Positions 1,407 through 57,700 of a DNA stretch of 64,000 nt are shown here, in pieces (positions within the stretch are counted from its first letter, which is position 1; every line of letters begins with the position of its first letter). Location: the NCBI GenBank assembly GCA_002633005.1, contig NMRA01000160.1:689102-753101 (forward strand). Direction: 5' to 3'. The notes beneath the pieces are model-generated. The model was not told where the DNA came from and did not search any database. It saw only the letters and a program-made list of their open reading frames with translations. Both the position numbers and the translations under genes were made by a program. The DNA comes from Phoronis australis (taxonomy: Eukaryota; Animalia; Phoronida).

Positions 1407-1519
1407 GTGGTTTCAAGCGTAGATTAGATGATGATGGTGGCAATGATGGTAGCTCCATCAAGAGGTTCAAGATTGGTGAGGGTCCGAACATGGAACTGAG
1501 GGTCCTTGTGTTGTCCAAG
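1407..1519 (+). CDS. HNRNPK: copy 1 exon: bipartite NLS and start of KH1
   Basis: ttgcag|GTGGTTTC...TCCAAG|gtaggt; encodes [37 protein letters not shown]. Confidence 0.93.
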
Positions 1520-7500: not shown

Positions 7501-10500
7501 AAAGTTTGGCTCATAGGCATCTATTAATGAGGTGATACTGTCCTCCCGTTTTCGGATGGTTTCGAGGTATTTTGCGCCACCTGGTGGCCATTTTTACTGT
7601 TTTTCGAGTGGTTGTTGTGGAAATTGGCATGTATTGTTCTTACCATGAATAGGACAATTTACAATGTTTTTCTGACGACTTCAACTACTGTGGCACCTTC
7701 TAGTGGCAGTTTTGTTTTTGTTTTTGTTTTGCGCCCATGCATGCCTGTATCTCCTAAGCCTTCTGCAGGATCTTTATTAAATTAAGCATGTGTATTTATA
7801 TGAAATTAACAACGGAAGATGCCGACTTTCAGATGGGTCCGATTAACACTGCCTCCTAGTGGCAATTTGATTTTTTTCTGTTTTCCTATGTTTTTCTGAA
7901 GTTCCTCAATGAATTTTTATGAAAATTGTTAAATAGCTTTCTTTTAAGGAAACAGTGACATTTTCCAATTTTCAGACGGATACGACGTATTTTGCGCCAT
8001 CTAGTGGCCATTTTCACTGTTTTGTAGTCTGTTTTTGGCGTCTGCCCTTTGTTAACCAAACCACTCTTAGGATGAATGTGAAAATTGGCTTATATATTGT
8101 TAGTGTGAAGAGGACTGTTGACGATGATTTACCAACTTCAGTTGCTGTGACGCCTCCTAGTGGCAGTTTTTTCGCCCTTAGCTATCTCCTAAGCCCTCAG
8201 CAAGTAAGACGACAACTTTCAGACAGATCCACCATTAACACTTTGTTCCCTAGTGGAAATTTCATTTTTATGCGCCCACATATTTATATGTGGAGGCATT
8301 ATTTCCGTTTTGCTCTGTTTCTCTAAAGTTTCTCGACGGATTTTCATGAAACGTGGTAAATAGCTTTCTGTTGAAAAACGGTGACATTTTCCCGGTTTTA
8401 AAGTTTGATCATCTTGTCGATACAGTTGTTTTATTATCACTTTACATTTCTGTTTTGCTAAAAGTTGCTGAAAAGACGTGATCACGTGACTGAAGTGGCA
8501 AGATTGGTAAAAAATCCAATTCTACAGGCTTTCTACTTTCAGAAAATAAATAATTCTGCAAACAAGTTAAAATCTATTCTTTTGTAGATATTTGGCTGAA
8601 TAAACCAACTTGTCGTTAAGGTCTTACATAACCTTATCTTGCCTTGTTGAAATACCTGAAAAGATAAGATGCACCATTGTGTATATGGAATGAGAAAAAC
8701 AAATTAACTAAATCTGGTTTTCTCTCTTTGTGAAAAATCTGAGCAATGATAAGAAATGGAATGAGAAAAACAAAACTAAACCTGGTTTTCTCTCTTTGTG
8801 AAAAATCTGAGCAATGATAAGAAATGGTTTCCTTGCCTAGAAAACTGCTGTGAAATGAAATAATGCAATTGGTGTTGGAACCATGTTATATACCAATTGA
8901 CAGCAGAAGTTGGTGTTCAGTGTGAGTAATTTGTGAGCCTGTTCTGAGTTTTAGTGATCTCTTCTTCAGAATGCCGGAGCTATCATTGGCAAGGGTGGCA
9001 CCAACATCAAACGACTGAGGAGTGAGGTAGGTATTTTGGTGGTCAGATGTTACTTTTGAGCAACTTTTTTTTGGAAAGTGCTTTGGCATCAATCTCGTTT
9101 ACATTTCAACAGTACATAGATGTACCATTCTATTAAAGACAGTGTTGTAATATAATGTTGTTTACATCTTGTAACTTATGAACAGGGTTGTGGTCTAGCG
9201 ACCCTTTGATTGTCATGGTGACCATTGACAAGAAGTTTTGTCGCATGATCAATTAAAATGCCCAAAATTGGTGGAAATTGCCACTTGTTCATCAAACCTT
9301 TGTCATCCTCGTATGGTATATTTAATGTGTCATTACTTGTATTTTAAACTCTTGGGAGTGCTTCCTGTCATAGATACAGTTGACCTGGTAAAAGGGCAGA
9401 TTCAGTTTCATGATTACTTTGGTTAAGAGTACTTCGCTGAATTTGGGCACGTCATTATCAATATATCACTTTTTTCAAAGTCTAGCTGAACTTGCCGTTT
9501 GAGTAATATTGTATAGCTGATGTGTTGTCTGTCCAACTTTGTCAAAACTGTGTTCTCAAACAAAAAAAATGCCAAGCCTGACTTACCAACTTATGGTTAT
9601 TTTTTTGTATTGTCACAGTAAAGACTGCATACACATGGCATAATCAAATGCATCTTATTGGTATTGTTACAGCTGACTGTTAAGGAATAAAATTTGCTAC
9701 ATGGTTCCAGGCTGTAGTGGAAAGCCCGCAAATTGACAAAAAATAGTTTCCAAGCATAGGTGACTCGTGGAAAATGAGAAGGGTGAAATCTTGTTGAAAA
9801 CTTGCAGAAATTATGTAAAATAAAAACCTCTGATTTTGTCAGTCAAATAAGGAAACCAGTTGTTAGACACTGTTTACATTTTTGCTAAAAAGACTAAATG
9901 GAAATGCAATGGGTCATTCACGAGTAGAGGCTGTTCCACTAAAGTATGTATGGGAGGGAGAAGGCACTTATTTTTTACCCATAATTTAAAATTCTTTCAG
10001 AAGACAACCACCCATTAATTTTTTTTAAGTGTCGTCCCCCCAACGAACAGATTTTGCTGGAACAGCCTTAAGAACTCTTTGTTGTGTTTAGGTAGGTGTT
10101 TAAAGTGTACACAACATGACTAGTACCTCAAAATAAATTTTATTATTATGTCTTACTTGATTTCAGTGCCTTTAGTGCACAGCTCATAAAGTAACATGTA
10201 AAAATTGAAAAACTTATGTACAACGTCATGGGTTGAACCCTAGTCGTTCGCCATACTGTTCGGATCAGAGACAATTAAGAGTGAAGTGAAAGCAATGTAC
10301 ATTTAGCACCGAGAAGGTTCGTAGAGGGATCAGAAGATGTGTTTCCGGAGGCTGCAGCAACAGGAGCCAGGCGGAGAACGTCTCGGTGTTCCGAAGGACA
10401 CCAAAGTTGCGCAGAAGTGGCATCGCTTCGTGCGCCGAACGAGAGTGTGGGACCTCATCGTGGACCAAGCGATTCTGTTCGGGGCCACTCTGTGTTCTGC

Positions 10501-13500
10501 CCACTTTGAGGACTCGTGTTTCGACTCCAGTCACAGGAGTTGTTACGATGAAGGCCTGGTTCAATAAAGGACAATATTTATCATTCAGAAACATCGGCTC
10601 TTAATTCAGGATCGTCTGTTGGATGACTGGGTTGTCTCGCCAAGCCCGAGGCCGCTTCTCTCGCGGGAGGATCCAGTTCGTAAGTCGCAAAGTAGAAAAG
10701 TACGCAGCCGGAAGCACATCAGACTTGTTCTCGCTTTCGTGCAACCCCATTTCCTCATCCTGGCCACCATTCCCGTACGTTTCTTCATAGTATCATTCAA
10801 TTCTTGCTCATAATCGTCGTCGCTTTCAAATTCACTGCTCTCCGCCATTGTTCAATGCTAGTCAGTGATCTCTTGTGTTCAACCCATGACGTCACATGGC
10901 GGGAAATTTGAAAATTGGCAAACTTGAAAGCAAAATCAAAATTTCGAGCTAATTATACAAAATAAACATAGGTTTAGCTAAATTTTACGTCATACATTTA
11001 GTCTGTGGCCACCGGTAATTCAAAATGTGCAAAAATCCATGGTGTGTACTGTTTAAACACTAAGAACAGCATCCATCAACATGGGCAAATGATCATTGTT
11101 GGGCTATTGACCTTGCTGTGGATAGCGCGACACACACCCACTCACCCACACTCACCCACACACCCCCCACACACACATACACACACACCCTCACACACAT
11201 CCTCACACACACACACACACACACACTCAGTACTATGGGTACTATGTGGTCACCCAGAGCAACCAAACCTTAAGACCTATATGTGCAAAGTGTACACGTG
11301 ACTTCATTTTTGCAGACATGAGTAAATGTGTAGCACCTATCCGATATCAATTGTCGGCTTTCTGAGTATGCCATTGCCTTCGTCGCACGTCCTTCATTCT
11401 GGATCGGAGGACAAAGTTTAAGCTCTGTGATGTGCGTGCGTCGGTTTTCGCCATACGTAAAAGGTCAGTTAAAACTTCCGGTGCAATCCGTCAGTCAAAT
11501 GGGGACTCTCTCACCGGGAACCATGTGGCAGCCAAAACATCCAAGATGCACTAGTTTTGATGGGATTATCACCTAAATCTACGTGCCAATATATGCATAA
11601 ATTAAATAGTAAAATTTACCCATCAAATCCTCTTCTTGCAGAATGCAATGTAGTCCGGAACTGAGTTTATGCCAGTATTTGTGACGTGATATTTCGGCCT
11701 CACAGGCTCTTGTTGTTAAATGTCATGCATATACATATATATGTATATATATATATAGATGTCTCTCTCTCCCGTTATGCCCTGGCCTCTCTCCTGTCCA
11801 AACACTCACACTGCCCATTCGAATATGACGACTTGCCCCGATTGGCCCGTTGATTGTTGGCCCCACACACCGCCATTCTGCAGTACACACCAAGTGTCAT
11901 GGTTCCTGACGGTTTAAGCACAAAACGGTATGATATATGGTGTACGTATACAACTTTACTGTTGTGCCCAGAGCCTGGCTGGCCCTGTGCCAACACTTTG
12001 GAATGGTTCACATCTTTGGCAAGGGCTTATGTGATGTGGATTTTTAAATGACTTTGTTCTTATGATTGGCCTTTCTTGGGAAAACTTCTTAGTAAAGGGT
12101 TTTTGTTGAGCGTTTTGTACCACTCGGTTTTCTTCTCGTGATTTGCTCGAAGTGAATTTCGTTAAACTTTTTACAAATGATTCAAAAGATATCCTTAATC
12201 TTAATCTAATTTACGTTTCACTGTTAGTTTTGACTGTGAATGCAGTTTTTTAGCATCTACGTGAATATGACCAAGGTGTGTTTTATTCTGTACCAATTGT
12301 TCCTGTCACGATGTGTCTGGTGTTGCCTTGAGCTCACTGTCTCTCTTGAATCTTTCCAGGATCTTGTCCATGACTGCTCCGGTGGGTACTATCTGTGCAT
12401 GTATGAGGGACATCATACCGACCTTGGAAGACGTAAGTTGGGGATTCACGTTTAGGCTCAGTGGTGCAGTCCACGACCCTAGCCGCTGGCAAAACTGCTA
12501 CGGTGATAGGTTGTGGCTTATAGAATGGACAAAGTGAGTTTGCTCCTGTAACTCAACATTCCGGCCAATCTATCCTAAGAATTCAGTGGTGACTGTCTTG
12601 CTAGCGTACGCTAATACGGTCATGAGGTTACTTGTGATCCACTACCCTCTCTGTGATGAGGTATTGCGCGATTTTGCCAAACCGACTTCAATGTTTCCCC
12701 TGCGTGTAAAAATCTGGACGGCTCGCCATGCTCCTTTTTGGTCCCGCCACTCATAAATCATGCCCAAATTGACCGCCACAACCTAATCATGAAGGGGAAA
12801 ACTTCACCACTATGCAAAAAACGCTAGTAAAAATTATCGTTTGTAAAAATTTTGTTTGTAAAAATTATCGCTAGTAAAATTTATCGCTAGTAACAATTAT
12901 CGCTAACTGTAATAATGAATACTCACAAGTCTCATGGCTACTTTTGCCGTTTGTGGCTCAAATGCGACATTCAACAGGTTACTGAACCATAGCACAGTGC
13001 CAATATGATGATATTGAATGGAAACCAGTCTCAGATTCGTCTGCATGGACTGGATGATACATTGCCTGCTATGCCCAGGATGCCGGCTAACGTCGATTCA
13101 ACTGATTTATGTTGAGCAATCCGCTATCGACGGAAGTTTCATTATGCAAATTAGTTTATCACGGCTAAAAAGTTCAATTCTTTTGGTTCCAAATACGTCG
13201 TGTCATGAGTTATGCTTGGGTCAAGGTACTGTCTACAATGAGTAAACTTGTAGAATGCACCAGACTGCACCTAATTACATCTAGTTTTTCAAATGTTACC
13301 TAGGAAAGTCCTCCCACCTAACCATGCTTGCATGCGGCGCCGTGTTTTGAAGTCGCTGCAACCATTCACCACCACACTTCTTTCGAAACTCAGACAATAG
13401 GGTAATCCATTTCCCATACTCGTGTGCGGCAGCGGGCTTTGCATCCTGTTTTAGCCATTCACCACCACACTTCTTTCAAAACCCAGGCAATAGGGGGCTC

Positions 13501-16500: not shown

Positions 16501-19500
16501 TCTTGTTACTGTTTTCGAGTCTGTTTTTTTGCGTCCACCCCTCTATCAACCAAACCGCTCAAAGGATGATTGTGAAAATTGGCATGTATGTGCTTACTAT
16601 GAAGAGGACAGTTAACGATGATTTTCCAATGGTTTCAACTACTGTGACGTTTCCTAGTGGCAGTTTTTTGTTTGCGCCTATGACTGTATCTCCTTAAACG
16701 GTCGCAGGATCTTTACTTAATTTAGCAAGTGTATTTATGTGATGTTGACTACGGATGACGACGACTTTCACAGAGATCTGACTACTGCTGTGCCCCCTAG
16801 TGTCAATTTTAGTTTTTTACGTTTAACTTGGTAACTTCAAAGGTCCTCAACAGATTTTCTTAAAAATTTTAAATGTAGGCATCTATTGGTGTGATGATGC
16901 TATCTGCCTGTTTTTGGATGGAATCGAGGTATTTTGCATCACCTAGTGGCCACTTTTTGCTGTTTTCAAATCTTATTTTTGGTGTCCATCCCTGTATCAA
17001 CCAAATCATTTGAAAATTGGCATATTATGTTCTCAGTGTGAAGACGACCTTTGATGATGGTGACTGATTACGGTCAGAAGCGCCTCCTAGTGGTAGTTTT
17101 GTTTTGAGCCCATAGTTGTATGTCTTAAACCCACTGTAGGATCTTTTTTAAATTTAGTAAGTGTATTTATATGAAGATAACAACATACGACGACCACTTT
17201 CAGGCAGATCCAACGGACACTGTGCCCACTAGTGGCAATTTCATTTTATTCTGTTTTCCTTTGTTTCTCTGAAGTTCATTGACAGATTTTTATGAAATAT
17301 GGCATGTTCCTGTTTTTGGATGGATTGTATGTTTTTGCGCCATCTAGTTTCCCCTCTTTTATGATGCACACCATTTGCAATGCATTTGTGGGCACATTTC
17401 AACGGGATTAGACGTGAAATACATGTATATTTCTACATGGTAGACACACTAACTGTATGCCTGTTGTTTGCACACAAACCCACTTCAGTGATAAGGAATG
17501 AGAGGGGCTTTGCACAAAACATCTGAGAACTTTTACTAGCATTCATGCAGTAGCCTGCATGTGGTCACATGTGAAAACCTGGTCAGTGGTGATTTACAGT
17601 CATGCAGGACCGTATCGACAAGTCTGCCTATTTAGCCAAATACAAACCTGTTAACATGTGCAAAAAATGGGGATTCGTGCGGAAATCAAGTCTCAGTACG
17701 CAAGTACGCACGGCCAGGCAAAAATACGCAAATTCAGCAAATTCAAAAGAGATTATTAATTCGCTTGATTCTCAATAAATACGCTTGCTTTTGGCTATCG
17801 TGACAGGAAAGATTGGTCATTTTGTCCATTTTCTTTTGACTTATACTGTACCATCCTTGGTATCGAGGGCATTGTTTTCCGTGGTGTCGCTATCTTCATG
17901 CTGCCTTCAGAGGATTTTGTCCAGTGTTGCTCCGCCAGAGCGCTTCCATTTTTGGTGAGTTGCAGCTGGTGAATATGTAATTGTAAGATACACCTGTTCT
18001 ATCTGTTGACAGTACCGGCAGTACAATGGCCGAGATGACTTTGACTGTGAAGTGGATATTCTGATCCAGCGGAGTGTGGTTGGAGGCATCATTGGAAGGG
18101 GTGGCTTCAAGATCAAGGAACTCCGAGAGGTAAGTGCCGGGACTGTTTAAGTCTGACGAATTTTCGCGTATTCTTCCAACTCTTAGGCTCTAAAAACCAC
18201 TCGATACGAGTGATAAATTGTTACGAAATTCGTACATATGTTTCGCTTTAAAAATCAATTAGAAGTAAAAACTATGCTCAGCCAATTTGGCGAAGGTCAA
18301 GAAGCAAATGCCGGAAATAGTAGAGAACAAAACAAAAGATCCGACTAATAAGAAGCAAGCTGAGTATCAGTGTGTAATGTAGTGCTTGATCTCTCATTTG
18401 CAGTTAGGTAGTGTGTGAATGACTGATGAAAATGCCCTTAATATTTGACTTTGCTTTGAAAGTTTTGTCAAGATGTAAAGAGCATAATTTCAGAAATTAA
18501 TATTCTGCGGAATAAGAATAAATTATAAATGTGAAGGGGGACATTAATTCTCCATGTTTTATTACACTGACCTGAGCACTGTGTGTGCCCAGAACTTTGG
18601 TGTGGTTCTGGAATTACATTGAGGTGTCGAGATTTGCTGGGCCTGGTCTGGTCGGGAGAAATCAATCATGCTGACAACGCAAAATATTGTCGTGATGAGC
18701 TGAGTTTTTACTGCACTTTGAACACGATTTGAAATATTTTTTGTGGGTGTATCATGCCATCTTTTGAACTGTTTGAAGGTATTGGAAGTTTTTACTTCCA
18801 AAATGTGGATTTTCAAAATGAAGGTTTGTTTTCTAATGGTGTTGGCTGCCTTGGGTATTGTTGCGTAACTCCGGTGTTGTGTGATAGTGATAGCTTGAAT
18901 TTAATCGTTGACAATCTTTTTTTAATTTTCATAGCAAACAAAAACGAACATCAAAGTGTTTCAAGAGTGTTGTGGGGAATCAACAGAGAGAGTGTGCTCC
19001 GTACAAGGGAAGCTGGACAACGTCATTGATGCGATCGGCCTGATCTTTGATACAATTAAAGATGTAAGTTGCATTTGTTTGCACTAAATGTGAAATGACA
19101 CTCAATCTGCAGCAGCAGCGCATTTTGGCATGTAGGCTACTCAATCCAGGAATGTTTCCAGATCTACAGCTTTGATCTTCAGAATTATGAAATTTCTAGT
19201 CAAATTCTGCTGCATCTGTCAAGATTTGGTTTCCTTGCCCTGTGTACATTTGGGACATTTATATTCTCTGTTGAAATTGTTGGAGAGGTGTCCGTTATTT
19301 ATGCGCCCACATATTTATGTGGACGCATTATGCCCGCATCCCTGTCCTTCCGGTGTCCGGCGTCTGCTGTATCTCCAAAACCCCTTGACGTATGTTCATG
19401 AAATTTTGCACATGTATTCCTTTCATGGATGGGACGGCATGAGCGAACTTTCGAACAGATCTAAGTACTGGTGTGCCCCCTAGTGGCAATTTTAGTTTTT

Positions 19501-22500: not shown

Positions 22501-24793
22501 GGCGTCCACCCCTCTATCAACCAAATTATTCTAGGGATGGGTTTGAAAAATGGCGTATATGTCACTGTGAAGAGGATGTTTGATGATGGCGAGTGACTAC
22601 TGTGGCGCCTCCTAGTGGTAGTTTTCTTTTGCTTTGCGCCCATAGCTATATCTCCTAAATGAACTGCAGGGTCTTTATTAAATTTAGTATTCGTATTTAT
22701 ATTAAGATAACAACAGACCACGACAACTTTCAGGTGGATCTAACGGACACTGTGCCCACAAATGGCAATTTTATTTTATTTTATTCTGTTTTCCTTTGCG
22801 TCTCTGAAGTTCCTTGACAGATTTTTATGAAATATGGCATGTTCCCGTTTTTGGATGGATTGTACGTTTTTGCGCCATCTAGTTGCCACTTTTTATGATA
22901 CAAATAAATAACCCTGAAAGCACTCCGTTTGCGATGCATTCGTGGGCGCATTTCAACGTTTCGCGTTGCTCTTGTATGAAATTTGGTAAATAGCTTTTTA
23001 TTAAAGAAGCGATGGCATGTTCCTGTTTTCGGATGGATTCCATGTATTATGCACCATCTAGTGGCCATTTTATGATACAAATATACACCCCAGAAGCACG
23101 CCGTTAGTGATGCATTCATGGGTGTATTTCAATGCTTTGCGTTGCTCTTGTTATGATATTTTTAAATAAAGTAGCTTTCTATTAAAGAAGCGATGACAAC
23201 TTCCCGTTTTCGGATGGATTTGACTTATTTTGCGCCATGTAGCAGCCATTTCTCTGATACAAATAAACACCCCTAGAACCATACCGTTTGCGGTTCTTTC
23301 GTGGGCTCATTTCTCTTGTTTGACCAACGGCCGCCTAATTAGCAATTAATAAGTTAATGAAGTTGGGTGCTTCAGTATTGCTATGATGTTGGCATCCTTG
23401 AAAGGTTAAATAGCCAAAAAAACACTTGTCTGTAGCAATTGTCTTCGTATTTGAAAACATATAATGGTAATACCTTTAAAACAACACACACACCCCGCCC
23501 CCCAAATATCTTGTCGGGCATCCTGGAGATTTTTTAGATCTGAGTCACCAATACTTATGCTACACCGTTCTGTATTTAACATTTTCTCATTATTAAATGC
23601 TTACCTTCATGAGAAATTAGATTCATGTAAATTGGCATGAGCCTTGCATAAAGTGCTCCTATTATAAATGCTCGCAGTTGATTCAGTTCATGCAGCTACT
23701 GTGAAATTCTCTGGTAAAAAATATTGTTAGCTTAATGATTAGATATTTCTATCCTTTAATTATTGAAAAGGTAGATTTTCCTGATAATAGCAAGCTAAGG
23801 TATTCAGTTAAACACTTCACACAGTCGTTATATTTAAATTTTTAAATCCTTTGGGTACCATTCCAGTATAAACCACGTGTCTGGAATATGTTCCTCAAAA
23901 TGTCACCAACTTGACGTGTAACACGGAAGCAGAGTTTGATGTTTCAGCATAATGGCACTTTTTGCTGCATCACATGAAAAAGGTCCATCAGAGAGAATCA
24001 TTCTGTAGATCCAGTTAACATCTGGCTGCAGGAACATGTCAGCAGCAACTGTTTACTGAGCAAATATTGACCGCTAAAGATCTCTCTGCCTTTAAAAGAG
24101 CATTGAGAAACATTGACATTGAGTTTGTAGAAGCTGACATGTATCAGAAGGACGTGGAATTGCTTTTCGTGTGTTAGTTATACTTGACATCATGCCTAGT
24201 GCATGCAATGAGGAGCCAGGTCAAGCCAAATTAGTGAGCCAGGTCTCAAGCAATTCTCGCAGGGACCATGAATCACTTGTAATCTGTTACAAGTTGAGAC
24301 CAGTTTAATTAGGGCTCACGGTAAAATCGTACCAATTACGGATAGACGTAACTACCAAAATTAACCTTTTTTGTGTTTTCAGTGTCTTCTGACATTGTTG
24401 TGAATACCAACAATTTTTCAAAACTGCCATATTGTGTCCTAGATTTTGCCATAATCAAAATTACTTTGTTGACAGAAGGCTGGCGCATGACACCTTTAAA
24501 TGTCTGTTTCCAATACAATTATTTCGTATCCTTTCAGTTACCTATTAAGGGGCAAGCGGTGAAGTACGACCCTGGAAATGACGTTGAAGATTTCACGTTG
24601 GAGGATATGGCCCGTGGTTCACGTGGTGGCCGAGGTGGCGGACGAGGTCGGGGGGGCCGTGGTGGTCCAAGGTACGATAGCTCACTGATGGGTGACTGTG
24701 AAAGCTGGTATGAAACTGCCTTGTGTCCAAAAACCAATTTGTGATTTAGACCACTTAACTGTATGAAATTAGTCTCCCATTGTTACCAAGTCT

Positions 24794-24877
<84 letters not shown>

Positions 24878-27800
24878 AATAAACAAAACAGAGGATAACA
24901 TGCATAAATAAACTGTCTAGTGAACTGTGGTCTCCTTCCAGTTCATAATGGCACAAAGGCATTTCCAACCAACTCAAGTAAATTACAAAAAACAGTTCCA
25001 ATGTGCCATCCAGTTATCTCCACTAATGAATATCTTGGATAAACTCCATATCTTTATCTTGATGTACCTTATCCGACCAGTCTTTCAGATATATCTTCCC
25101 ATCGTAGGTCCAGTAGCCTTCCACTCTTCTCCTCGCACCAAGATCCCTTTTACCGCTTTGAATAGTTTTGCCCTTCGCTTGGTAAGACTCTCGTTGACAT
25201 AAACGCCCGCATCAACATCTTTCAAGGACTTACGTTGACGAAAGAAATTTGAACGAGCATTGTGTGTGGTAAACTTAACCACAGTAGGACGGTATTGTGG
25301 CTGAGTTGACTGACTATTATTCTTGACTGAAGCACGTCCTATTCTGATATCGGCTTCAGTTGTATTGGTGCCCATTTTTGTAGTCAATTCTAACACAATT
25401 TTATCATTTGATTCCCCCTCTGTTTCTTTTTTTACCAGCAATAACTATACTGTTGCTGCTCCTCACGTTCTTCTTATAAGGCGACATTATCAGAATCAAA
25501 CTTATGCCTCAAATCGGACAGTTCTTGCCTTATCGCAGTTATTTCCTGGTCTTCTTCTTTCAACTTTTTCGCAAACTGAATTTCTAAACCTGCAGATAAA
25601 ATTTCATTCAACTTTTCATCTAGCCAACCTTGTAACATATTCTTAAATCTCGTAATAACTTCTGGATCCATAAGTGCAGCTTTAAACTCGTCTTTTAGAC
25701 TTACTTAGTGCCTGCTCGATTTGCCAGCCATGCCTGCAACAGTTTCGTCCAAAGTGGCCTGCTTCATTCTCTTTCTCAACTCCTCGCTGTTTTTACTAGC
25801 TTGTCTCTTTTTCTGTGAATTTGGTTCTGACTTATCACTCATATTGACAGGAGACACATTTAAATTACGGAAGACACTTTTAAAATATTGAAAACATACG
25901 GAGAGCACTGTTCAGTCAACTGCACGCTAGTCCACCATGACCGGAAGTTGGTAAAGTTTTTAAAGAGAAACGAGACCTTTTCTGAAATTGATTCGGCGGG
26001 TTTTTTTAGTCTGTGATTGCAGGTCTGGAAATGAGTCAGGATGAAGACCAAAAGCAGCATTGCTTTTTTGGCCTTGATGGGCAGTTAACGAGATGATTTG
26101 TAGATACAAAAATGCTTACGGGTGAACTGCTTTGCGGTTTGCTAAGCAACAGCATGGACGCATACCTTGCAGCTATGGGGAAAGATTGGCCGCCTCAAGA
26201 CACTGGGTCCCTTTTTTGATGAGTGTTTATGCTATCTCTCGGTAGGGAAACAAGTAGTTGTGGTATTGCAGGTGACAAGCAGTGTTGGGTGAAATTATTC
26301 TAGCAAGTTAAGTATTCTTGTAAATGTTGAATTAGGTTGAAGGTGTTGCATTTCAGAGGAGGCTTTGGAGGTGGTGGCGGTGGATTCCGTGATGGCGGTA
26401 TGAGAGGGGGTCGATTTGGAGGTGGTGGCGGCGGTGGTCGAGGACGTATGAACGACAGCTTTGGTGGTGGTTTCGGCGGAGGTCGCCAAGACAGGTGGGC
26501 TACTCCTGTTGTCGGAAAGCACTGCCGCACGCTAATGTATGTGTTAATAGATAATGATACTTGTCAAGCTAATGATAAGTATAGTTACTTCTTGTATTCG
26601 TAAAATGCATTACTGTTGTACAATACAAAATTGGAGACCACCTGTAGAAACGAATATTAGTTTTGGCTGGGTTGTTTCCATGAGAGACTATCATCAGCTC
26701 ATTCTTATAAAATGAGGGCCGGCAGCCAGGCCAGTGACTTGCAAAGGAATAGCGACTTAAGCTGGCATGAAAGAGCTACATGTGAAAACAGAGTTTCTTG
26801 ATTTAATTTGTTGGAATACTTGAAATCCAATTTTTACCACTGCTTGTAGGCTTTTTGCTGTCAAAACTGTATTGGATGAGGTGGAAAGGTCTGTTTAAAA
26901 ATCAAGAATGCCATTGTTCAAGACGGTCTTTAAATTTTGGAATGTGCAAAGTTGGTAGAATTTTCTGCCTTGTGCTGGTAGTCGTCCAGATACCATTCAG
27001 GATGAACAGTGAATGGTTTTTCGTTTTTAATTTCTAGATTCGGGGCTGGAAGCCGTGGTAGGGGAGGCCAGTCAAACTTATCCAGTGATTCTGGAATGGT
27101 GAGTTCAGGAACACCGAGAAGCAACGTGCAGTTGTGGTTATTGGCATCATGTTGAACACTGCGAACACAACAAATTTTCCGTTCACCGTCGCCACTCACC
27201 GATTTCAACTAAATCATTTTGGCCTTCCTTTCAATATTCCGGTCGAATGACAAGTTCCACCTTTATGAACATGAACTGACATCAATGTAGCACTGAGCTT
27301 GAGTAAACTAAATGTTGTCATTGTTAGCTCTTAATCCATATATACCAACGTTGTGGTAACTGCATAGTTTTTTGTGTGTTTCCAGGGAGACAGCCAGTGC
27401 ATGATGTTGTCGGACCAAGTTACCATTCCCACTGACGTAAGAATAATAGTGTTCAGGTGGTCATTTGAAACTGTCTGGCAACACATTTCATGTTAGCATT
27501 TACTAAAGTCACTATGTACTCACCTTCTGCAATAAGAGAAGCAAGCTTCTGATTTAGACAGCTGGCCTTTATAAAATTAGTCTATACTTGTTTCTTGCTT
27601 ATTGTTATTGCTTGATAGCAAGGTCTCTAAGATGTCTTGACTCAGCTGGTCATTTTATACCACAAAGTCAGGATGGCTTATGTACCAACTTAACTAGTAC
27701 TCTAGCTTGGCGTATGCTGGATTCAACTTTTTGGACTGTTAATTGTGTCTTTGAAAGGAGGATCTGCTATTGTTTGGATCAACTCAGTGGTGGTTTGTAG

Positions 27801-33800: not shown

Positions 33801-36800
33801 NNNNNNNNNNNNNNNNNNNNNNNNNNNNNNNNNNNNNNNNNNNNNNNNNNNNNNNNNNNNNNNNNNNNNNNNNNNNNNNNNNNNNNNNNNNNNNNNNNNN
33901 NNNNNNNNNNNNNNNNNNNNNNNNNNNNNNNNNNNNNNNNNNNNNNNNNNNNNNNNNNNNNNNNNNNNNNNNNNNNNNNNNNNNNNNNNNNNNNNNNNNN
34001 NNNNNNNNNNNNNNNNNNNNNNNNNNNNNNNNNNNNNNNNNNNNNNNNNNNNNNNNNNNNNNNNNNNNNNNNNNNNNNNNNNNNNNNNNNNNNNNNNNNN
34101 NNNNNNNNNNNNNNNNNNNNNNNNNNNNNNNNNNNNNNNNNNNNNNNNNNNNNNNNNNNNNNNNNNNNNNNNNNNNNNNNNNNNNNNNNNNNNNNNNNNN
34201 NNNNNNNNNNNNNNNNNNNNNNNNNNNNNNNNNNNNNNNNNNNNNNNNNNNNNNNNNNNNNNNNNNNNNNNNNNNNNNNNNNNNNNNNNNNNNNNNNNNN
34301 NNNNNNNNNNNNNNNNNNNNNNNNNNNNNNNNNNNNNNNNNNNNNNNNNNNNNNNNNNNNNNNNNNNNNNNNNNNNNNNNNNNNNNNNNNNNNNNNNNNN
34401 NNNNNNNNNNNNNNNNNNNNNNNNNNNNNNNNNNNNNNNNNNNNNNNNNNNNNNNNNNNNNNNNNNNNNNNNNNNNNNNNNNNNNNNNNNNNNNNNNNNN
34501 NNNTTCATTTTGCAAAGGCTTATTACTTTACTGCAAGTGAAGGAAATTTACCAAAAAGTTCTTTTATGACATCTACACAGTAGAGACAACAAGATTTTCT
34601 TAAACTTTGGTTTGTAGAAAATAGGCTTTAGAGAATTTCACTTGTGGACCATATTGGTTACTGAATAAGTGAAAAATTACTGTAGTTTTATTTTGAAAAC
34701 TACTGTGTATTGGCTTGTTGCCATTCACTATAAGCTGCTTGTGTTCCATTGCAGTTGGCAGGTAAAGTTATCGGCAGGGGAGGAGAGCGCATCCGCTCCA
34801 TCCGCGCCAATTCTGGTGCCAGCATAACTATAGATGAGCCACTACCAAACACAAACGATAGAGTCATCACCATTCAGGGTTCCGAGTCGCAGATTACAAA
34901 GGCCAAATTTCTTATGCAACAAGCGTAAGTCTCCCAGCTTTCAGTTGTCTGCTTCGCCTTTGCTTGATCACAAGGATCTCGATTTGTAAATGATCAAGGC
35001 TTGGAATTTTCCTCGGAAACGCGATTTCCGCTTTTTTCAAATGTTCTGTCAGCGTATTTTATTATATTTCCGCGTAAAAAAATTGGATTTGATATAAAAT
35101 CTCCACAGCAAATTTCTTACAGCGGCGTTGCCGACGACTTTCACCTCGAAAAGCGGAAGTTGCTCTTTATGTTTCGGAGGAACGTAAATTGTCAACATTG
35201 CCGGGGCATCTGGGATAGCGTGGTGGATTTCTTCAATGTGTCTCGTGTGATTGTAAACTGCGGTGACAAATACTACGTCTCTGCAGCCAAAAATGTTTGG
35301 AGGCGGGAGTGTGGGAGTGGACGGACGAGCTAAAAAGACGCTTGTGGAGTTGGTACCATTTTTTTTACTCCTCCCGATTTTTGTCGGCAACGGGTACACA
35401 TGTACACATCGACTATTTCAGGCCAGGTGCGCGCGCGCATGTTTTGGGCCGTAAAAATTTCCGCTTTTTTGTCATTGGTCATTCCAAGCCCTGAATGATG
35501 TTTTTGTGATATCAGTGAAGTTCAATGCCGTGATTTTTAACTTATTATATACCCACCTATTTATATGTGGACGTATTATGTCATTATCCCCGTCCGTCCC
35601 TTGTCCACTGCTTGATGTATGTTCATAAATTTTGCATGTGTGTTTCTTTCATGGATGGGACGACAGGAGCGAACTTTCGGACAGATCCGACGACCAGTTT
35701 GTCAAGTAGTGGCAATTTTATTTTTTTATGCTTACCCTCTGTATCTTCAAAGGTCCCTCACGGATTTTCATAAAATTTGGAACATTGGCATCTATAAGTG
35801 AGATGCCGGTACCCTCCCGTTTTTGGACGGATTCAAGTATTTTGCGCCACCTAGTGGCCATTTTTGCTGTTTTTGAGTCCGTTTTTGGCGTCCGCTCCTC
35901 TATCAACCAAATCGCTTCAAGGATGATTGTGAAAATTGTCATGTATGTTCTTACTATTAAGAGGACGGCTGACTGTGGTTTTCGAACGACTTTGACTACT
36001 TTAGCACCTTCTAGTTGCAGTTTTGTTTTTTGCGCCCATGGCTCTTTCTCCTAAACCCACTTCAGGATCTTTACTAAATTTAGCAAGTGTATTTGTATGA
36101 AGTTGGCAATAGCCACGACTACTTTCGGATCGATCTGACTATCGGTGTGCCTTCTAGTGGCAATTTTAGTTTTTTACATTTATTTACCTCTGTATCTTCA
36201 AAGGTTGTCAACGAATTTTCATAAAGTTTGGAATGTAGGCATTTTTTGTTAGATGACGCTATCCTTCCGTTTTCAAATGGATTCGAGGTATATTGCATGC
36301 GCACACCCAGGGGGGGTTCGGGGGGGTCGAACGAGCCCCCCCTCCCCATTAGGCAAAGTAGGTAAAAAAGGTCCACCTCCGAGCAACAAATTGTCTGAGA
36401 TAACTGGACAGAGCGCGAATGCGCACTTCACAGTCATGCTCCCGTTTTTTTTTTTAATCCGCCCGTTGTTTCTGGTGGGAATTTTTGCTGTTTTCGAGTC
36501 TGCTTTTGGCATTTCTGTCTAACAACCAAACCATTCTAATGGTGATTTTGAAAATTGGCGTGTGACGAGAATGGTTGACGATGACGACTTCAACTGCTAT
36601 GGCGCCTCTTTGTGGCAGTTCTGTTTTGTTTTCATAGCTCTATCTCCAAAACTCATTACAGGATCTTTATTATAGTTTGTAAGTGTATTTATATGAAGTT
36701 AACAACTGACGATGACGACTTTCAGACTGCTCCGATGAACGCTGTGCCCCGTAGTGGCAATTTTTGTTTGTAGTTTTCCTTTGTTTCTTTCATTTGACAG

Positions 36801-39800: not shown

Positions 39801-40136
39801 GTTAATTTTGCAAAGTGTCGCTCAAGACTGTAGCCTATTTCTTACTGATTTCTGACCTCTAAGGTCGTCATATGAATGATATTATAATGCTCATCATCGC
39901 CACGATCATTGCCATATTCATCATCTTCGTCGTCATCTTTATATTAGTCGTTTTTTCGGTTAATTTCGCCAAGTGTTGCTCCTCGGAGTGCTTTCATTTT
40001 GTTTCACTTGTCTGCTCAGTAAGAATCTTGCACTCCTCGGATTCTTTGCTGGTCAGGGGTAGCTGAGCAAACCTTGTTAATCACGTTCCTCTGATGTTTC
40101 AGGGTGAGGGGCATGGAAGGCGGAAGTCGATACTAA
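1407..40136 (+). CDS. HNRNPK: hnRNP K-like gene, copy 1 (spliced; start exon upstream of window; about 382 aa if the first coding exon matches copy 2)
   Basis: Exons 1407-1519, 8970-9026, 11884-11927, 12360-12432, 18013-18129, 18935-19063, 24538-24671, 26357-26494, 27038-27098, 27386-27436, 34755-34924, 40103-40136 splice in frame with GT-AG ends. The translation matches hnRNP K hallmarks ([68 protein letters not shown]). Confidence 0.95.
2433..4716 (-). mobile_element. Kolobok-like DNA transposon derivative with decayed THAP domain
   Basis: Flanked by TTAA with AG...CT ends; absent at the homologous site in copy 2 (~51480). Minus strand 4423-4262 reads MPLCRVNRCSNVSSNDIHSHNFP..(fs)AWNRFASTTR..KICS, a THAP pattern. 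Confidence 0.6.
4819..6170. mobile_element. Tc1/mariner-pogo-type non-autonomous element
   Basis: TIRs ccatatttgccgtaataaccgccc / gggcggttattacggcgaatgcgg with TA duplication; empty site aatgttTActaa in copy 2 (~51578). Confidence 0.8.
6591..8633. mobile_element. TTAA-associated MITE predating the duplication (homologue ~52221-52747), interrupted in copy 1 by a HINE-like insertion
   Basis: ttaa ggttatgt... / ...acataacc tta short TIRs; sequence colinear in both copies. Confidence 0.55.
6902..8400 (+). mobile_element. DINE-1/HINE-like non-autonomous Helentron, family A
   Basis: 5' cgcccacatatttatatgt head and cctagtggc-bearing tandem units; absent from copy 2 (flanks join near 52510). Confidence 0.7.
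8970..9026 (+). CDS. HNRNPK: copy 1 exon: KH1 GXXG loop
   Basis: ttcag|AATGCC...AGTGAG|gtaggt; [19 protein letters not shown]. Confidence 0.95.
10104..11052 (+). mobile_element. Kolobok-like internally deleted transposon with THAP remnant and convergent second ORF
   Basis: TTAA both sides; imperfect TIRs agtgtacacaacatg / catggtgtgtactgt. The + strand peptide PKDTKVAQKWHRFVRRTR...LCSAHFEDSCF is THAP-like. The minus-strand ORF starts MAESSEFESDDDY. Absent in copy 2. Confidence 0.72.
11129..11227. repeat. imperfect (CA)n microsatellite
   Basis: direct inspection; expanded relative to copy 2 (~54117-54131). Confidence 0.9.
11884..11927 (+). CDS. HNRNPK: copy 1 exon: KH1 beta2/variable loop (44 nt)
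   Basis: ctgcag|TACACA...AAACG|gtatga; [15 protein letters not shown], homologous to vertebrate YNASVSVPDSSGPER. Confidence 0.9.
12360..12432 (+). CDS. HNRNPK: copy 1 exon: end of KH1
   Basis: ttccag|GATCTTG...GAAGAC|gtaagt; [24 protein letters not shown]. Confidence 0.93.
13362..13580. repeat. ~93-bp minisatellite, about 2.3 units (one unit fewer in copy 2, ~56491-56610)
   Basis: ccattcaccaccacacttctttc recurs near 13362, 13455, 13549. Confidence 0.7.
13823..17402 (+). mobile_element. family A HINE-like cluster with nested full-length copy 14547-16507
   Basis: Head atgcgcccacatatttatatgtggacgcat hairpin plus (GTCC)n; ~452-bp tandem units (14711, 15163, 15615); tail gtgggcgcat plus caacgctccgcgttg hairpin plus ctcttgtt; no TSD; T-rich target; absent in copy 2. 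Confidence 0.8.
18013..18129 (+). CDS. HNRNPK: copy 1 exon: KH2 N-terminal half
   Basis: gacag|TACCGG...CGAGAG|gtaagt; [39 protein letters not shown]. Confidence 0.95.
18935..19063 (+). CDS. HNRNPK: copy 1 exon: KH2 C-terminal half
   Basis: catag|CAAACA...AAAGAT|gtaagt; [43 protein letters not shown]. Confidence 0.95.
19297..23320 (+). mobile_element. family A HINE-like cluster with nested copies at 20084 and 21420-22975
   Basis: Same head, core and tail motifs; flanks align to copy 2 at 58981-59130, which lacks it. Confidence 0.8.
24538..24671 (+). CDS. HNRNPK: copy 1 exon: post-KH2 linker and first RGG block
   Basis: tttcag|TTACCT...CCAAG|gtacga; [45 protein letters not shown]. Confidence 0.92.
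24795..24872. repeat. (CA)n microsatellite, about 38 units; probable (TG)n tail of the adjacent minus-strand element
   Basis: direct inspection. Confidence 0.95.
24795..25950 (-). pseudogene. decayed LINE ORF1p-like coding region (ORF1-only retroelement)
   Basis: Basic N-terminus, coiled coil (KKLKEEDQEITAIRQELSDLR), then RPTVVKF, VYVNESLTKRRAKLF and WTYDGKI motifs typical of LINE ORF1p RRM/CTD; stops and frameshifts; absent in copy 2. Confidence 0.75.
26357..26494 (+). CDS. HNRNPK: copy 1 exon: RGG/FGG low-complexity region
   Basis: tttcag|AGGAGG...GACAG|gtgggc; [46 protein letters not shown]. Confidence 0.9.
27038..27098 (+). CDS. HNRNPK: copy 1 exon: end of Gly-rich region (54 nt shorter than copy 2)
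   Basis: ttctag|ATTCGG...GGAATG|gtgagt; FGAGSRGRGGQSNLSSDSGM. Confidence 0.88.
27386..27436 (+). CDS. HNRNPK: copy 1 exon: start of KH3
   Basis: ttccag|GGAGAC...ACTGAC|gtaaga; [17 protein letters not shown]. Confidence 0.9.
29662..31491 (+). mobile_element. second HINE-like family (B), nested in family A; internal ~305-bp tandem x3
   Basis: 5' palindrome tacttggcggaattcttccgccaagta; 3' subTIR tccgccaagt plus hairpin cgctcctccgagcg; host unit resumes after it; units start near 30381, 30694, 30995. Confidence 0.75.
32040..32525 (+). mobile_element. 5'-truncated CR1/L2-group LINE 3' end
   Basis: MLKALNWPTLQERR..LLYKTIHNLVAIP..YANSFFPSTILLWNRLP is a typical ORF2 C-terminus; short gaa-repeat tail. 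Confidence 0.75.
33746..34503. other. assembly gap (N run)
   Basis: run of n; single-n joins also at 20217, 51851, 60736. Confidence 1.
34755..34924 (+). CDS. HNRNPK: copy 1 exon: KH3 core
   Basis: ttgcag|TTGGCA...CAAGC|gtaagt; LAGKVIGRGGERIRSIRANSGASITIDEPLPNTNDRVITIQGSESQITKAKFLMQQA. Confidence 0.95.
34995..35493. mobile_element. ~500-bp hAT-like MITE, 6-bp TSD
   Basis: TIR ca(a/g)ggcttggaat / attccaagccctg; aatgat duplicated; same family at 57418-57917. Confidence 0.8.
35543..37160 (+). mobile_element. family A HINE-like element in the last intron
   Basis: Degenerate head acccacctatttatatgtggacgtat, core units, and two gcgttgctcttgtt-type tails. Confidence 0.75.
37430..38683. mobile_element. 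TIR element, PIF/Harbinger-like
   Basis: ~30-bp TIRs gcccggtctccaatctccgactcatactc / gagtctgagtacggagattgaagaccaggc, with subterminal tactc/gagta repeats. Confidence 0.65.
38832..39998 (+). mobile_element. family B HINE-like element
   Basis: ttacttggc head, homology to 29662-30480, tail ttcgccaagtgttgctcctcggagtgc. Confidence 0.72.
40103..40136 (+). CDS. HNRNPK: copy 1 terminal coding exon with stop (duplicated at 40160-40193)
   Basis: tttcag|G GTG AGG GGC ATG GAA GGC GGA AGT CGA TAC TAA = VRGMEGGSRY*. Phase matches the KH3 exon, and a U-rich 3' UTR-like stretch follows. Confidence 0.82.
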
Positions 40137-40474
40137 ATACTATAGACCTATTGTTTCAGGGTGAGGGGGATGGAAGGCGGAAGTCGATACTAAATATTAT
40201 AGACCTATGCATCTGATAAACACTCTGCTTGTGTCTTCAATTTCTTTTTTTAGTAGTAGCATGTAATTCAGTTTTAACTATTCCCATTTTAAATTTGACT
40301 TGTGTGTTGTTAACTGACTTTTTAGTGCTTTGTAAATATGATACTTTGTGAAATTTCTTTGATCTTTGTTAATTTAGTGATAATTGATCCCTAGAATTCT
40401 TCTGTAGACAACTGCTAATTAATTTGGACAGAAATATTGCTGATGTAGATTTTTATTATTTCGGACTGGTTTCC

Positions 40475-43546: not shown

Positions 43547-43959
43547 ATCATGTTGCAAGCCCAAGAAATTTATAGGAGTAGAATACTGGCTGTTTAGTTT
43601 TTAGGTTGTAAAGTCACATCTTTGTCAGATTTTCAAAATTCAAAAACCTAACCCCGTGCATGATTCGAATAAGCTATTTAAAAACTTTCAAAACGAAAAT
43701 GTAAAAAATAGGCCTACTATTGCCGCCCACAGTGTTTACAACCATGCTGATGATGGGCAATTTCTCACCTGATTGCCTCGGAAATGCGGCTGACGATGGT
43801 TGATTGGATTCTTTGAAGAAAGCAGCGGATTTTAAGGTGGACTTGTATTCTTTTCATCCATGCCTGGCTAAGAAGTCGTATCCTGCGGACTAGGTAACAA
43901 ACATGACATTGCAATTCAAGAGGTAGCATACGCACGTTTCACTGTTGAAGTTGTTATGT

Positions 43960-46470: not shown

Positions 46471-46663
46471 ATGATATCGATTTTTAAAACGATTAAAATC
46501 GATTCAGAATTTCAGTTCTGGAAAATAAATCGCGATTGTTTTATTCCAGATAGACCTTACTTATTTTCTATTTGTGACCTCTTTATTTGACATATTGCTG
46601 TTGCTGTTCTTAATACCACTTATCTCTGCTGTCTTTCTTTTTCTTTTCAGTTTTTCTTCATTC

Positions 46664-48041: not shown

Positions 48042-48674
48042 CATTCTCTCACCTTGTCAGTCAAAACAGAACTGTAACCCTTTTACCTTTGAGACCGTGT
48101 CGGCGGAAGTTGATCATTGAACCTCGATACAGTTGTTCTAATAAATAAATAAATAAATAAATAAATACCCAAGTTGCATTTGCATTTTATTGCTCAATCT
48201 TTTCTTTTATTTTTAATTATGTCTTGCTTTGTTGTATGTAACAATGCATTATAATGAAATAAAGTCAATGTTTTACTTTATTACTCGAACAAATATTCCC
48301 GTTATCGAACTTCTTCTTTGAGCAGTCCCTCGTTCGGTTCCCAAAATCGGTAACCCGTCATTTTTATCACTGCGCGCGGCAGGGGTGGGGTGGGGGTGTG
48401 ATGTCGTGTCCCCTAGTCAATGCCAAGAAAGTGGCCACCATCATTGTGGCCACTGTCAGGTCTTTGCAAGACCAAATATCACTTCGCATCTCTGTTAAGA
48501 ACATGTTGAGACCAATTATATAGTGTTAGTTGGTTTAAATCGAAAATTTCAACGGAATGCAAGTTCAGTTTTGCCAGCTATAGCACCATGTTGCTGTAAA
48601 TTTGCTCAAAATGACCGGATATCTTTTTACTTGAGTGTATTGTCATTTCAGGAAATTACAACTGAAAATTCACA

Positions 48675-48702
48675 ATGGCAGATGACAGTTTCAACAGTTC
48701 AG
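48675..48702 (+). CDS. HNRNPK: copy 2 first coding exon (exon begins 48652)
   Basis: tttcag|GAAATT...CACA ATG GCA GAT GAC AGT TTC AAC AGT TCA G|gttagt; MADDSFNSS. Good Kozak context (acaATGG); phase 1 matches the next exon. Confidence 0.8.
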
Positions 48703-54700: not shown

Positions 54701-57700
54701 CACTCGTTATGCCCTGGCCTCTCTCCTGCCCAAACACTCACACTGCCCATTCGAATATGACGACTTGCCCCGATTGGCCCGTTGATTGTTGGCCCCGCCC
54801 ACCGCCATTCTGCAGTACACGCCAAGTGTCATGGTTCCTGACAGTTTAGGCCCAGAACGGTATGATATATGGTATACGTATTACAACTTTACTGTTGTGC
54901 CCAGAGCCTGGCTGGCCCTCTGCCGACACTTTGAAATGGTTCACCTCCTTGGCTAGGGCTTATGTTTCATCATTATAGTAATTTGAATTTTTAAATGTCC
55001 GTATGATTGGCCTTTCTTGAGAAAACCTCAGTAAAGGTTTTCTGTTTAGGGTTTTGTTACGCTCATGGGTTTTCTTTTTGTGATTTGTTGAATTGAATTT
55101 CGTTAAACTTTTTACAAATGATTCAAAATATATCCGTAATCTTAATCTTATTTACTTTTCACTGATAGTTTTGACTGTGATTGCAGTTTTTGAGCATCTA
55201 CCTGAATATGACCAAGGTGTGTTTTATTCTGTACCAGTTGTTCCTGTCACGATGTGTCTGGTGTTGCCTTGAGCTCACTGTCTCTCTTGAATCTTTTCAG
55301 GATCTTGTCCATGACTGCTCCGGTGGGTACTATCTGTGCATGTATGAGGGACATCATACCGACTTTGGAAGATGTAAGTTGGGGATTCATGTTTAGGCTC
55401 AGTGGTGCAGTCCACGACCCTAGCTGCTGGCAAAACTGCTACGGTGATAAATTATGGCTTATAGAATGGACGAAGTGAGTTTGCTCCTGTACCTCAACAT
55501 TCCGGCCAATCTGTCCTAAGAATTCAGTGGTGACTACGCTAATGCTATTGTGAGCTTACTCATAATACACTAGCCTCTCTCTGATGTAGTCTTGGGTGGT
55601 CTTGCAAAACTGACTTCATTGTTTTCTGTGTGGGTAAAAATCTTTTGGCGGCCCGCCATACTCCTTTTTGGACCCACCACTCGTAAATCATTCCCAGATT
55701 GTCCACCACACGCCTAATTGTGACGGAAAACTTCACCGCCAGGCAAAAATCACTTGTAAAAATTATCACCTGTAAAAATTATCGCCAGTAATAATGAATT
55801 CGGCAAGTCACACGGCTACTCTCGCCATTTGTGGATCAAATGCGAAAAATAGTAACGTAACAATCATTTTATCTCCTTCATCACTTGGTCATTGACATTC
55901 TCCTATGCCTGGTTATCTGACAATGCACAGCAATTGAATACAGTCGGATACCAGGCAACGACCTTGACACTAGATTTCTAAAATGGCAAAGTGCCAAGGC
56001 TTATGAAGTGGATGGAGAAACTGCAAGCTTTATTCATTTTATTGTGTCTGCGTTTACAGCAATGTGAACTATATTGCACAAGACATTCAACAGTTTAATG
56101 AACCATAGCCCAGTGCCCATATGGTGATATTGAATGGAAACCAGTCTCAGATTCGTCTGCATGGACTGGATGATACATTGTCTGCTGTACCCAGGATGGC
56201 GGCTAATGCCAGTTTAACTGATTTATGTTGAGCAAGACGATATCAATGGAAGTTTCAATATACAGATTAGTTAATAACGCCTAAAAAGTTCAATTCTTTT
56301 GGTTCTGAGTACGTCACATCATGGATGAGGCTCGTTTTATAATACTGTCTATGATCAGTATACTTTTAGATTGCACCAGATTGCATCTAGTTTTTCAAAT
56401 TTTTCGTGGGAAAGGTCTCCCACCACCAACCCAACAGGAGGATCTCTTTTCCCGTGCTTGCATTCGGCGCCGCGTTTCGAATCGCTTCAACCATTCATCA
56501 CCTCACTCCTTTCAAAACCCAGGCAATAGGGGGCTCCCCCTTCCCATACTCGTGTGCAGCACCGGGCTTTGCATCCAGTTTTGGCCATTCACCACCGCGT
56601 TCCTTTCAAAGTCCAGGGGAAACACTGTGGTTTGAAGCTTGTGTTATGGTGAGCTCCCCTGGTCAAGGTAGTTTTGTATGGTTACTACCACAAGCTCAAA
56701 AGTCTACAAGGTGTAATAACAGATTCAGTTTGGGATGGTTTTAACTTGCCTAAAATTACACCCGATACATCTCCATTCAGACATGTTGCATTCATTACAA
56801 CTTATGTCTGATTTTGAATTGTATTTCTCGTATGACTGTTAAAGCAACATGGGACTAGACGGTGAAATACTCAAATATGCCTACGTGATAGTCACACAAA
56901 CTAAGCGTGTGGTGTGCACACAATCTCCACTTAGTGATCTGGTTAAATTGAAGACATTTGCACTAAACATCTGAGGAGTTTTACTGTGACGGTCAATTCC
57001 ACATATATTCAGTGGTCATAGCGGGGAGTTTGCTTTCAGAAGTCACGGCTCCGAAAGGCAGATCATTTTATTTATTTTCTTTTGGCTTACACTGTACCAT
57101 CCTTAGTATCGAGGGCGTTGTTTCCCGTGGTGTCGTTATCTTCACACGGCTTTCTGACGATTTCGTCTAGTGTCGCTCAGCAACAGCGCTTTCATTTTTG
57201 ATGAGTTGCAGCTGGTGAACATGTAATTGTAAGCTACACCTGTTCTATCTGTTGACAGTACCAGCAGTACAGTGGCCGAGATGACTTTGACTGTGAAGTG
57301 CGTATTCTGTTCCATCACAGTCTGGCTGGAGGCATCATTGGAAGGGCTGGCTTCAAGATCAAGGAACTCCGAGAGGTAAGTGCCGGGAGTGTTTAACTCT
57401 GACGGATTTACATATATCAGGGCTTGGAATTTTCCGCGGAAACGCGGATTTCCGCTTTTTTGAAATGTGCTTTCCGCTTTTTTTATAATATTTCCGTGTA
57501 AAAAAATCAGATTTGATATGAAATTTCCGCGGCAAAATTCCTTTCTTACCGCGGCGTTGCAGACGACGTTCACCTCGGAAAGCGGAAGTCTTTATGTTTC
57601 GGAGGAACGTAAATTGTCAACATTGCCGGGGCATCTGGGTAAAGCGTGGTCTGATTTTCAATGGCGGCTCGTGTTATTGTTAAGCGCGGCGACAAATACT

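Follow-up and report, generated by a model that had tools for sequence, protein, structure and literature searches.

The window analysed here, a 64-kb stretch of Phoronis australis DNA taken at its full length, carries tandem hnRNP K paralogues: two colinear copies (A and B) of an intron-containing hnRNP K gene lie on the same strand. All ten coding exons shared by the copies have AG/GT ends and open frames in both. The frame of copy A is open to a stop codon at 40136, with no stop or frameshift earlier, and copy B starts near 46400-48700. From a gap at 33746 up to 51851 the sequence is free of N, and within it the 3' end of A is followed directly by the 5' start of B. The KH3 domain of B lies beyond the window end, and hence the comparison of the two copies was limited to exons 1-10, which extend over 26.0 kb in A and 12.9 kb in B, the surplus in A being largely repeats. 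The features are as follows.

1407..1519, + strand: copy A exon 1, N-terminal region and start of KH1; 3 replacements relative to B (AG/GT ends, open frame, codon comparison)
8970..9026, + strand: copy A exon 2, KH1 helix 1, GXXG and helix 2; 0 replacements (AG/GT ends, codon comparison)
11884..11927, + strand: copy A exon 3, KH1 beta2, variable loop and start of beta3; 4 replacements, each of them derived in A, one being E to K at the human Glu85 position
12360..12432, + strand: copy A exon 4, KH1 beta3 and helix 3; 0 replacements
18013..18129, + strand: copy A exon 5, KH1-KH2 linker, KH2 beta1, helix 1, GXXG and helix 2; 9 replacements, 0 silent; A-type spliced reads in 3/3 raw RNA runs
18935..19063, + strand: copy A exon 6, KH2 beta2, variable loop, beta3 and helix 3; 6 replacements, 3 silent; RNA reads
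24538..24671, + strand: copy A exon 7, post-KH2 linker and first RGG; 9 replacements and a 6-residue deletion taking out the YGGF motif
26357..26494, + strand: copy A exon 8, RGG; 1 replacement
27038..27098, + strand: copy A exon 9, RGG; 5 replacements, 18 residues shorter than B
27386..27436, + strand: copy A exon 10, lead-in to KH3; 2 replacements, 3 residues shorter than B
34755..34924, + strand: KH3 exon, given to copy A by its position after the N gap at 33746; Pfam PF00013, E 3e-17, frame open to the stop
40103..40136, + strand: copy A last coding exon with the stop codon (splice ends, open frame)
48652..48702, + strand: copy B exon with the likely start ATG (48675), from sequence; splice joint 48699-49849 with 176-215 reads per RNA run
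49852-49964, 53013-53069, 54816-54859 and 55301-55373, + strand: copy B exons 1-4, KH1 (splice ends, RNA splice joints)
57259..57375, + strand: copy B exon 5, first half of KH2, the major transcript type (splice ends, RNA reads, PF00013)
58651..58779, + strand: copy B exon 6, second half of KH2 (splice ends, RNA reads, PF00013)
59810-59961, 61216-61353, 61909-62023 and 62669-62728, + strand: copy B exons 7-10, linker and RGG (splice ends, RNA splice joints)

Copy A encodes three type I KH domains, as both KH2 halves and KH3 match PF00013 and KH1 aligns with its homologues, and an RGG stretch occupies exons 7-9 of both copies. Homologues were searched for with a window exon alone and with a profile seeded with hnRNP K-like proteins. 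The named best matches were hnRNP K or hnRNP K-like and the others were unnamed KH proteins; PCBP1-4, Nova and FUBP were not among them. Over KH1-KH2, the window gene is approximately 62% identical to hnRNP K of vertebrates and molluscs. No close relative was found in these searches, the best matches reaching 51-56% on exon 6. Ranking behind P0132 and P0019, the best full-length hnRNP K-like match to this exon came from Owenia (48%); this protein is too distant to polarise sites and has the GRGG of copy A, leaving that site ambiguous. With exon 6 of copy A, a word search returned no matches and a search of PDB sequences only chance ones. P0132, an unnamed protein of 733 residues, appears to carry three copies of the hnRNP K KH2 region and two of KH1; inspection by eye showed no KH3 in it. 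A placement of the pair next to vertebrates in the first tree (94/89) collapsed when more rows were added, and no clade is claimed. Our literature search for duplicated or positively selected hnRNP K and for studies of E85K found nothing relevant. The locus appears to be undescribed in the literature searched, but the outcome of the duplication is itself of a familiar type.

Several other elements were observed in the window. A repeat family with a 452-nt unit (3.1 copies at 14704-16106, related sequences near 6900-8400, 19300-23300, 28300-29700, 31500-33745 and 35550-36900) fills the introns of copy A and doubles its span; in each RNA run, up to 1100-1400 reads have loose ends at 49093-49178 that belong to this repeat, indicating that the family is abundantly transcribed somewhere. 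An approximately 500-nt high-copy element with very high DNA and RNA depth is located at 57416-57918 and 34993-35494 (79% alike), in different introns of the two copies. At 40095-40208, a head-to-tail duplication (57 nt, 96% alike) comprises the acceptor and the last coding exon of copy A, and a putative degenerate reverse-transcriptase (LINE-like) remnant was seen by eye between the copies at 43950-45050. Near-identical blocks of A and B, reaching well into introns, are found at 8840-9202 and 52883-53246 (8 differences in 364 columns), 9372-9527 and 53417-53574 (5 in 158), 12252-12483 and 55193-55424 (6 in 232), and 26294-26497 and 61153-61356 (6 in 204). The intron at 53070-54815 has a sense-strand RNA depth of 17-36, compared with less than 2 in 62832-64000. 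These blocks and this intron are candidates for a retained intron, an autoregulatory poison exon or gene-conversion tracts.

On exons 5-6 of copy A, both transcript types were detected on the sense strand, with almost no intron depth, in all three raw RNA runs (one study), and the letters of A and B are both present in the reads at the replacement sites of these exons. The median share of A-type reads over 11 replacement sites was 6.0, 7.7 and 12.4% in the three runs, and mapping the reads to copy A would, if anything, raise this share; copy B provides about 90% of the transcripts. A fourth sample, consisting of contigs from another study, contained the B type only, and contigs lose rare variants. 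No third letter was seen at the replacement sites in the three runs, and no third transcript type in exons 5-6 was found among RNA reads at 80% likeness. Within A, silent site 18994 is polymorphic, the G of the window occurring in 0 of ~11, 0 of ~8 and 7 of ~26 A-type reads. Splice joints were seen for at least nine of the junctions of the gene, among the 15 joints listed out of 428; the underlying mapping of reads to 17.8 kb at 80% likeness was swamped by repeats and was used for joints, depths and contig pieces only. With its open frame and spliced reads, copy A shows neither of the marks of a pseudogene, a broken frame or the lack of a spliced transcript, and it may dominate in tissues other than those of the RNA runs.

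Among 305 aligned codons, 39 replacement and 21 silent differences were counted (dN 0.074, dS 0.129). Exon 5 (18013-18129 vs 57259-57375) differs at 11 nucleotides in nine codons, all replacements with no silent change, and exon 6 (18935-19063 vs 58651-58779) at six replacement codons (two with three, one with two and three with one nucleotide changed) and three silent ones, two of which are in the last helix, while the 138-nt exon 8 (26357-26494 vs 61216-61353) contains one replacement and two silent codons. The counts given for these three exons by a sequence-only reading (nine replacements without a silent change, six replacements, and a single one in the RGG exon) were therefore exact, and its view of the copies as paralogues was borne out: they are true, expressed paralogues, and KH2 diverges far faster than is usual for hnRNP K. 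The replacements are unevenly spread among the exons (p 0.007) and are more frequent in KH2 than in KH1 (13/69 vs 4/66, p 0.036), and exons 2, 4 and 8 and the last KH2 helix are nearly without them.

Introns provided the baseline, with 926 mismatches in 8057 gap-free columns (0.115). The pN of KH2, 0.121, is about 1.05 times this value, and that of KH1 is 0.027. At least 11 differences were present in 870 of 1457 gap-free intron windows of 117 nt, indicating that exon 5 diverges at an ordinary intron level, and the probability of finding no silent change among 11 under neutrality is 0.063, or 0.48 for any one of ten exons. Thus, a divergence of exon 5 beyond chance was not confirmed. The same applies to the proposal that the low-complexity RGG region is conserved in reversal of the usual pattern: the quiet exon had been picked, whereas exons 7, 9 and 10 carry 9, 5 and 2 replacements (16 together) and in-frame deletions of 6, 18 and 3 residues in A, and KH2 does not differ significantly from exons 7-10 (13/69 vs 17/128 replacements, Fisher p 0.31).

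Element boundaries and contact residues were transferred from the crystal structure of PCBP2 KH3 with DNA, as described in PMC1885661. Contact positions of KH2 differ between the copies at 3/16, compared with 10/53 positions elsewhere (p 0.63), the three being one backbone carbonyl, one of four groove-floor residues (A/V) and the second GXXG residue, and none of the 16 contact positions of KH1 differs. Both arginines that read the two central cytosines, as mapped from PCBP2 KH3, are identical in A and B in KH1 as well as KH2, and the GXXG loops keep their basic residue and have gained no acid (compare PMC3413153). The divergence had been claimed to concentrate in the RNA-binding surface of KH2. 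This was not confirmed or was overstated: the definition of the cleft used for that claim gives 8/24 vs 5/45 codons (p 0.029), the groove as defined in PMC1885661 gives 10/42 vs 3/27 (p 0.16), and the contact positions show no enrichment. Two of the nine replaced codons of exon 5 are in the KH1-KH2 linker and three in strand beta1. Within the originally defined cleft segments, pN is 0.242, with 13 replacement nucleotides vs 6.3 expected (p 0.013); the p value of this excess becomes 0.025-0.067 with local intron rates and 0.30-0.56 when the 6-nt change at 18965-18970 is counted as one event. The two-fold excess is the best evidence for selection, and it is fragile. The KH2 loop has 10 differences in 27 nt, a density matched by 60 of 6144 intron windows (~1%), and all four KH1 replacements are located within five adjacent codons.

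The suggested retuning of the paralogues to different RNA targets is not supported by these data, with KH2 at the intron rate, the cytosine readers identical and the faster copy weakly expressed. For human hnRNP K, KH1, KH2 and KH1-KH2 alone are described as binding weakly, the affinity being given by the RGG linker (PMC7498318, PMC10023864), so that a conserved RGG exon fits without any retuning.

The copy in which the changes arose was examined with 131 homologous proteins, from which 11 short fragments were dropped before alignment and 71 distinct rows were used for column scoring. Among these rows, 75 of the 150 KH1-KH2 columns are at least 85% conserved. Ten conserved columns differ between the copies, with A departing from the conserved residue at nine and B at two (at one column, both). 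Both copies had been said to depart from the vertebrate sequence at different sites, and both do, in a lopsided manner: of the 19 KH1-KH2 positions at which the copies differ, A departs from a human hnRNP K isoform (P0123) at 11 and B at 3. Branch lengths are 0.13-0.14 for A vs 0.033-0.044 for B, and whole-protein relative-rate counts, obtained with four distant outgroups, were 13-14 vs 5-6, which is not significant (p 0.06-0.17). The motifs PER[IV] in KH1 and YGG[FY] after KH2, present in 120/120 full-length homologues, are found in B and not in A, in which four KH1 loop residues are replaced, GPER of KH1 is lost and YGGF is deleted. The departures of B in KH2 are Q to H, C to K and I/V to F. 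At 58681-58686 of B, a near-invariant KH2 cysteine (69/71 rows) was changed to lysine by a 6-nt block change, and at 59840-59842 B has valine where A keeps the aspartate of YDP (118/120 homologues).

Residues were then numbered on the human isoform, with the offset verified at 26 residues named in papers. At five positions, namely Gly83, Glu85 (Lys in A), Arg148 (Asp in A), His152 and Leu155, B has the human residue and A differs from both. These are reported positions of Au-Kline missense variants (PMC9606382, PMC9001983), and Glu85Lys itself was seen in five patients according to Table 1 of PMC9606382. A is changed at 5 of the 12 listed KH1-KH2 variant positions vs 14 of 138 others (p 0.009) and, considering conserved columns only, at 4 of 9 variant positions (p 0.015); both tests are post hoc, and two of the 12 positions were negative for the methylation signature (PMC9606382). 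The overlap suggests that the changes in A are not harmless and is readable as loss of function or as targeted change. The two charge reversals (Glu85 to Lys, Arg148 to Asp) might even offset one another; no covariation corresponding to such a swap was observed in the homologues, in which the Glu is invariant.

Taken together, our analyses indicate, with a probability that we put at about 0.6, that copy A is a low-expression, faster-evolving duplicate whose changes result mostly from relaxed, although not absent, constraint rather than from a retuning of RNA binding. Copy B would cover the dosage-sensitive function, and A, buffered by B, would tolerate changes in the loops, helix 1, strand beta1 and the linker and would drift there at about the neutral rate. 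Purifying selection, possibly aided by gene conversion, would hold the fold of A and its core cytosine readers. A would then remain folded and able to bind C-rich RNA, although with lower affinity or a smaller set of partners, and the few KH2 departures of B would have arisen while each copy was buffered by the other. The same lopsided loss outside KH2 (the KH1 loop, the YGGF deletion and the RGG deletion) argues against retuning, and the near lack of replacements in exons 2, 4 and 8 and in the last KH2 helix speaks against a free decay of A. Raised replacement rates can result from relaxation as well as from selection (PMC2588116), and a faster paralogue with lower expression is a common pattern in Drosophila, where PMC3906896 reads it as unfinished pseudogenisation. 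The cleft excess, the density of differences in the KH2 loop, the higher divergence of KH2 than of KH1, the non-significant relative rates and the conserved residues changed in B itself count against relaxation, and random decay would not predict changes at five of the 12 variant positions.

An alternative hypothesis is neofunctionalisation, in which positive selection rebuilt the KH1-KH2 surface of A (helix 1, beta1 and both variable loops), changing affinity, flanking-base preference or partners while keeping the C-reading core. The cleft excess (p 0.013), the cluster of KH1 replacements, the five human missense-variant positions, the multi-nucleotide codon changes, the lack of a third letter at replacement sites in the three RNA runs, and a copy A free of stops and frameshifts all point in this direction. 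However, the excess is gone if codons 145-146 are taken as one event (p 0.30), and those codons represent a change of B relative to the vertebrate rows; in addition, contact positions are not enriched (3/16), A is the minor transcript in every raw run, and conserved motifs were deleted elsewhere in it. We therefore consider neofunctionalisation unlikely, and positive selection at a few sites a possibility of the same modest order. The more specific proposal that A is a selected hnRNP K variant with the poly(C) core kept and the Au-Kline KH1-KH2 residues rebuilt, serving as a tissue-restricted modulator or competitor with other targets or partners, is more doubtful still.

Patchy gene conversion might instead keep exons 2, 4 and 8 alike, with the KH2 exons merely lying in an unconverted tract. 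Intron divergence ranges from 0.076 to 0.21 (p 2e-14), the near-identical blocks cover exons 2, 4 and 8 with their flanks, and the introns beside exon 5 are at 0.14-0.15, as this hypothesis would predict. Exon pN does not follow the divergence of the flanking introns, however (Spearman 0.22, p 0.54), the conserved blocks may be splicing elements, and the replacements at invariant residues are left unexplained, which makes conversion improbable as the main cause. It is very improbable, moreover, that A and B are highly divergent alleles, or haplotypes fixed in a clonal or hybrid lineage, that were put in tandem by the assembly. Although the introns are colinear across the gene, the scaffold contains N joins and the RNA runs could be pools or single animals, the KH3 exon, last exon and 3' end of A and the following 5' exons of B lie in sequence that is N-free from the 33746 gap to 51851. 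Furthermore, at 11.5% divergence, the B-type reads (four samples) are free of further variants over 246 coding nt, both types occur in 3/3 raw runs at about 1:7 to 1:16, and run X8 contains, besides B, A-type reads of two kinds at silent site 18994 (7/~26 with G). Finally, an arms race with viral or transposon RNA driving both copies can hardly be credited, because, although conserved KH2 residues are changed in both and PMC4287573 names hnRNP K as a regulator of hepatitis C virus production, the RNA reads show no replacement polymorphism, no omega above 1 is seen at the domain level, the core binding residues are unchanged, and the data contain no pointer to any virus or element.

Relaxed constraint on a duplicate is an ordinary outcome, and this locus represents a clean example of it in a gene that is normally almost frozen. 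It also offers a natural mutagenesis set, namely a viable, expressed hnRNP K with the Glu85Lys equivalent and four further changes at disease positions, alongside a near-normal copy. If selection on A were shown, the locus would exemplify a core hnRNP with altered specificity or partners, and it would point to a functional surface of KH1-KH2 that is so far uncharacterised.

Compared with animal hnRNP K, a member of the triple-KH, poly(C)-binding PCBP/hnRNP K family, the gene has the same order of KH1-KH2, RGG linker and KH3, and the C-reading arginines are kept in KH1 and KH2 of both copies; the differences are the tandem pair itself, an A without GPER and YGGF, and a B with Q to H, C to K and I/V to F. 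Judged from the basic residue in GXXG and both arginines, A and B would each resemble a PCBP-type poly(C) reader. Unlike the Au-Kline variants described in PMC9606382 and PMC9001983, the changes of A appear to be fixed at a second locus beside the main copy, and four of its five new residues are not the human variant residue listed, Glu85 to Lys being the match. The divergent patches beside near-identical tracts are reminiscent of the 'peak of divergence' in the Teshima-Innan model of neofunctionalisation under conversion (PMC2588116), whereas background divergence is here high along most of the gene, unlike in that model. As for the asymmetric duplicates in the Drosophila survey of PMC3906896, tandem pairs are less asymmetric there, unlike this tandem pair, and the fast copies have more non-synonymous SNPs, with none found here in 246 nt in three runs; the likeness is that the faster copy is less expressed and the parent gene is highly constrained.
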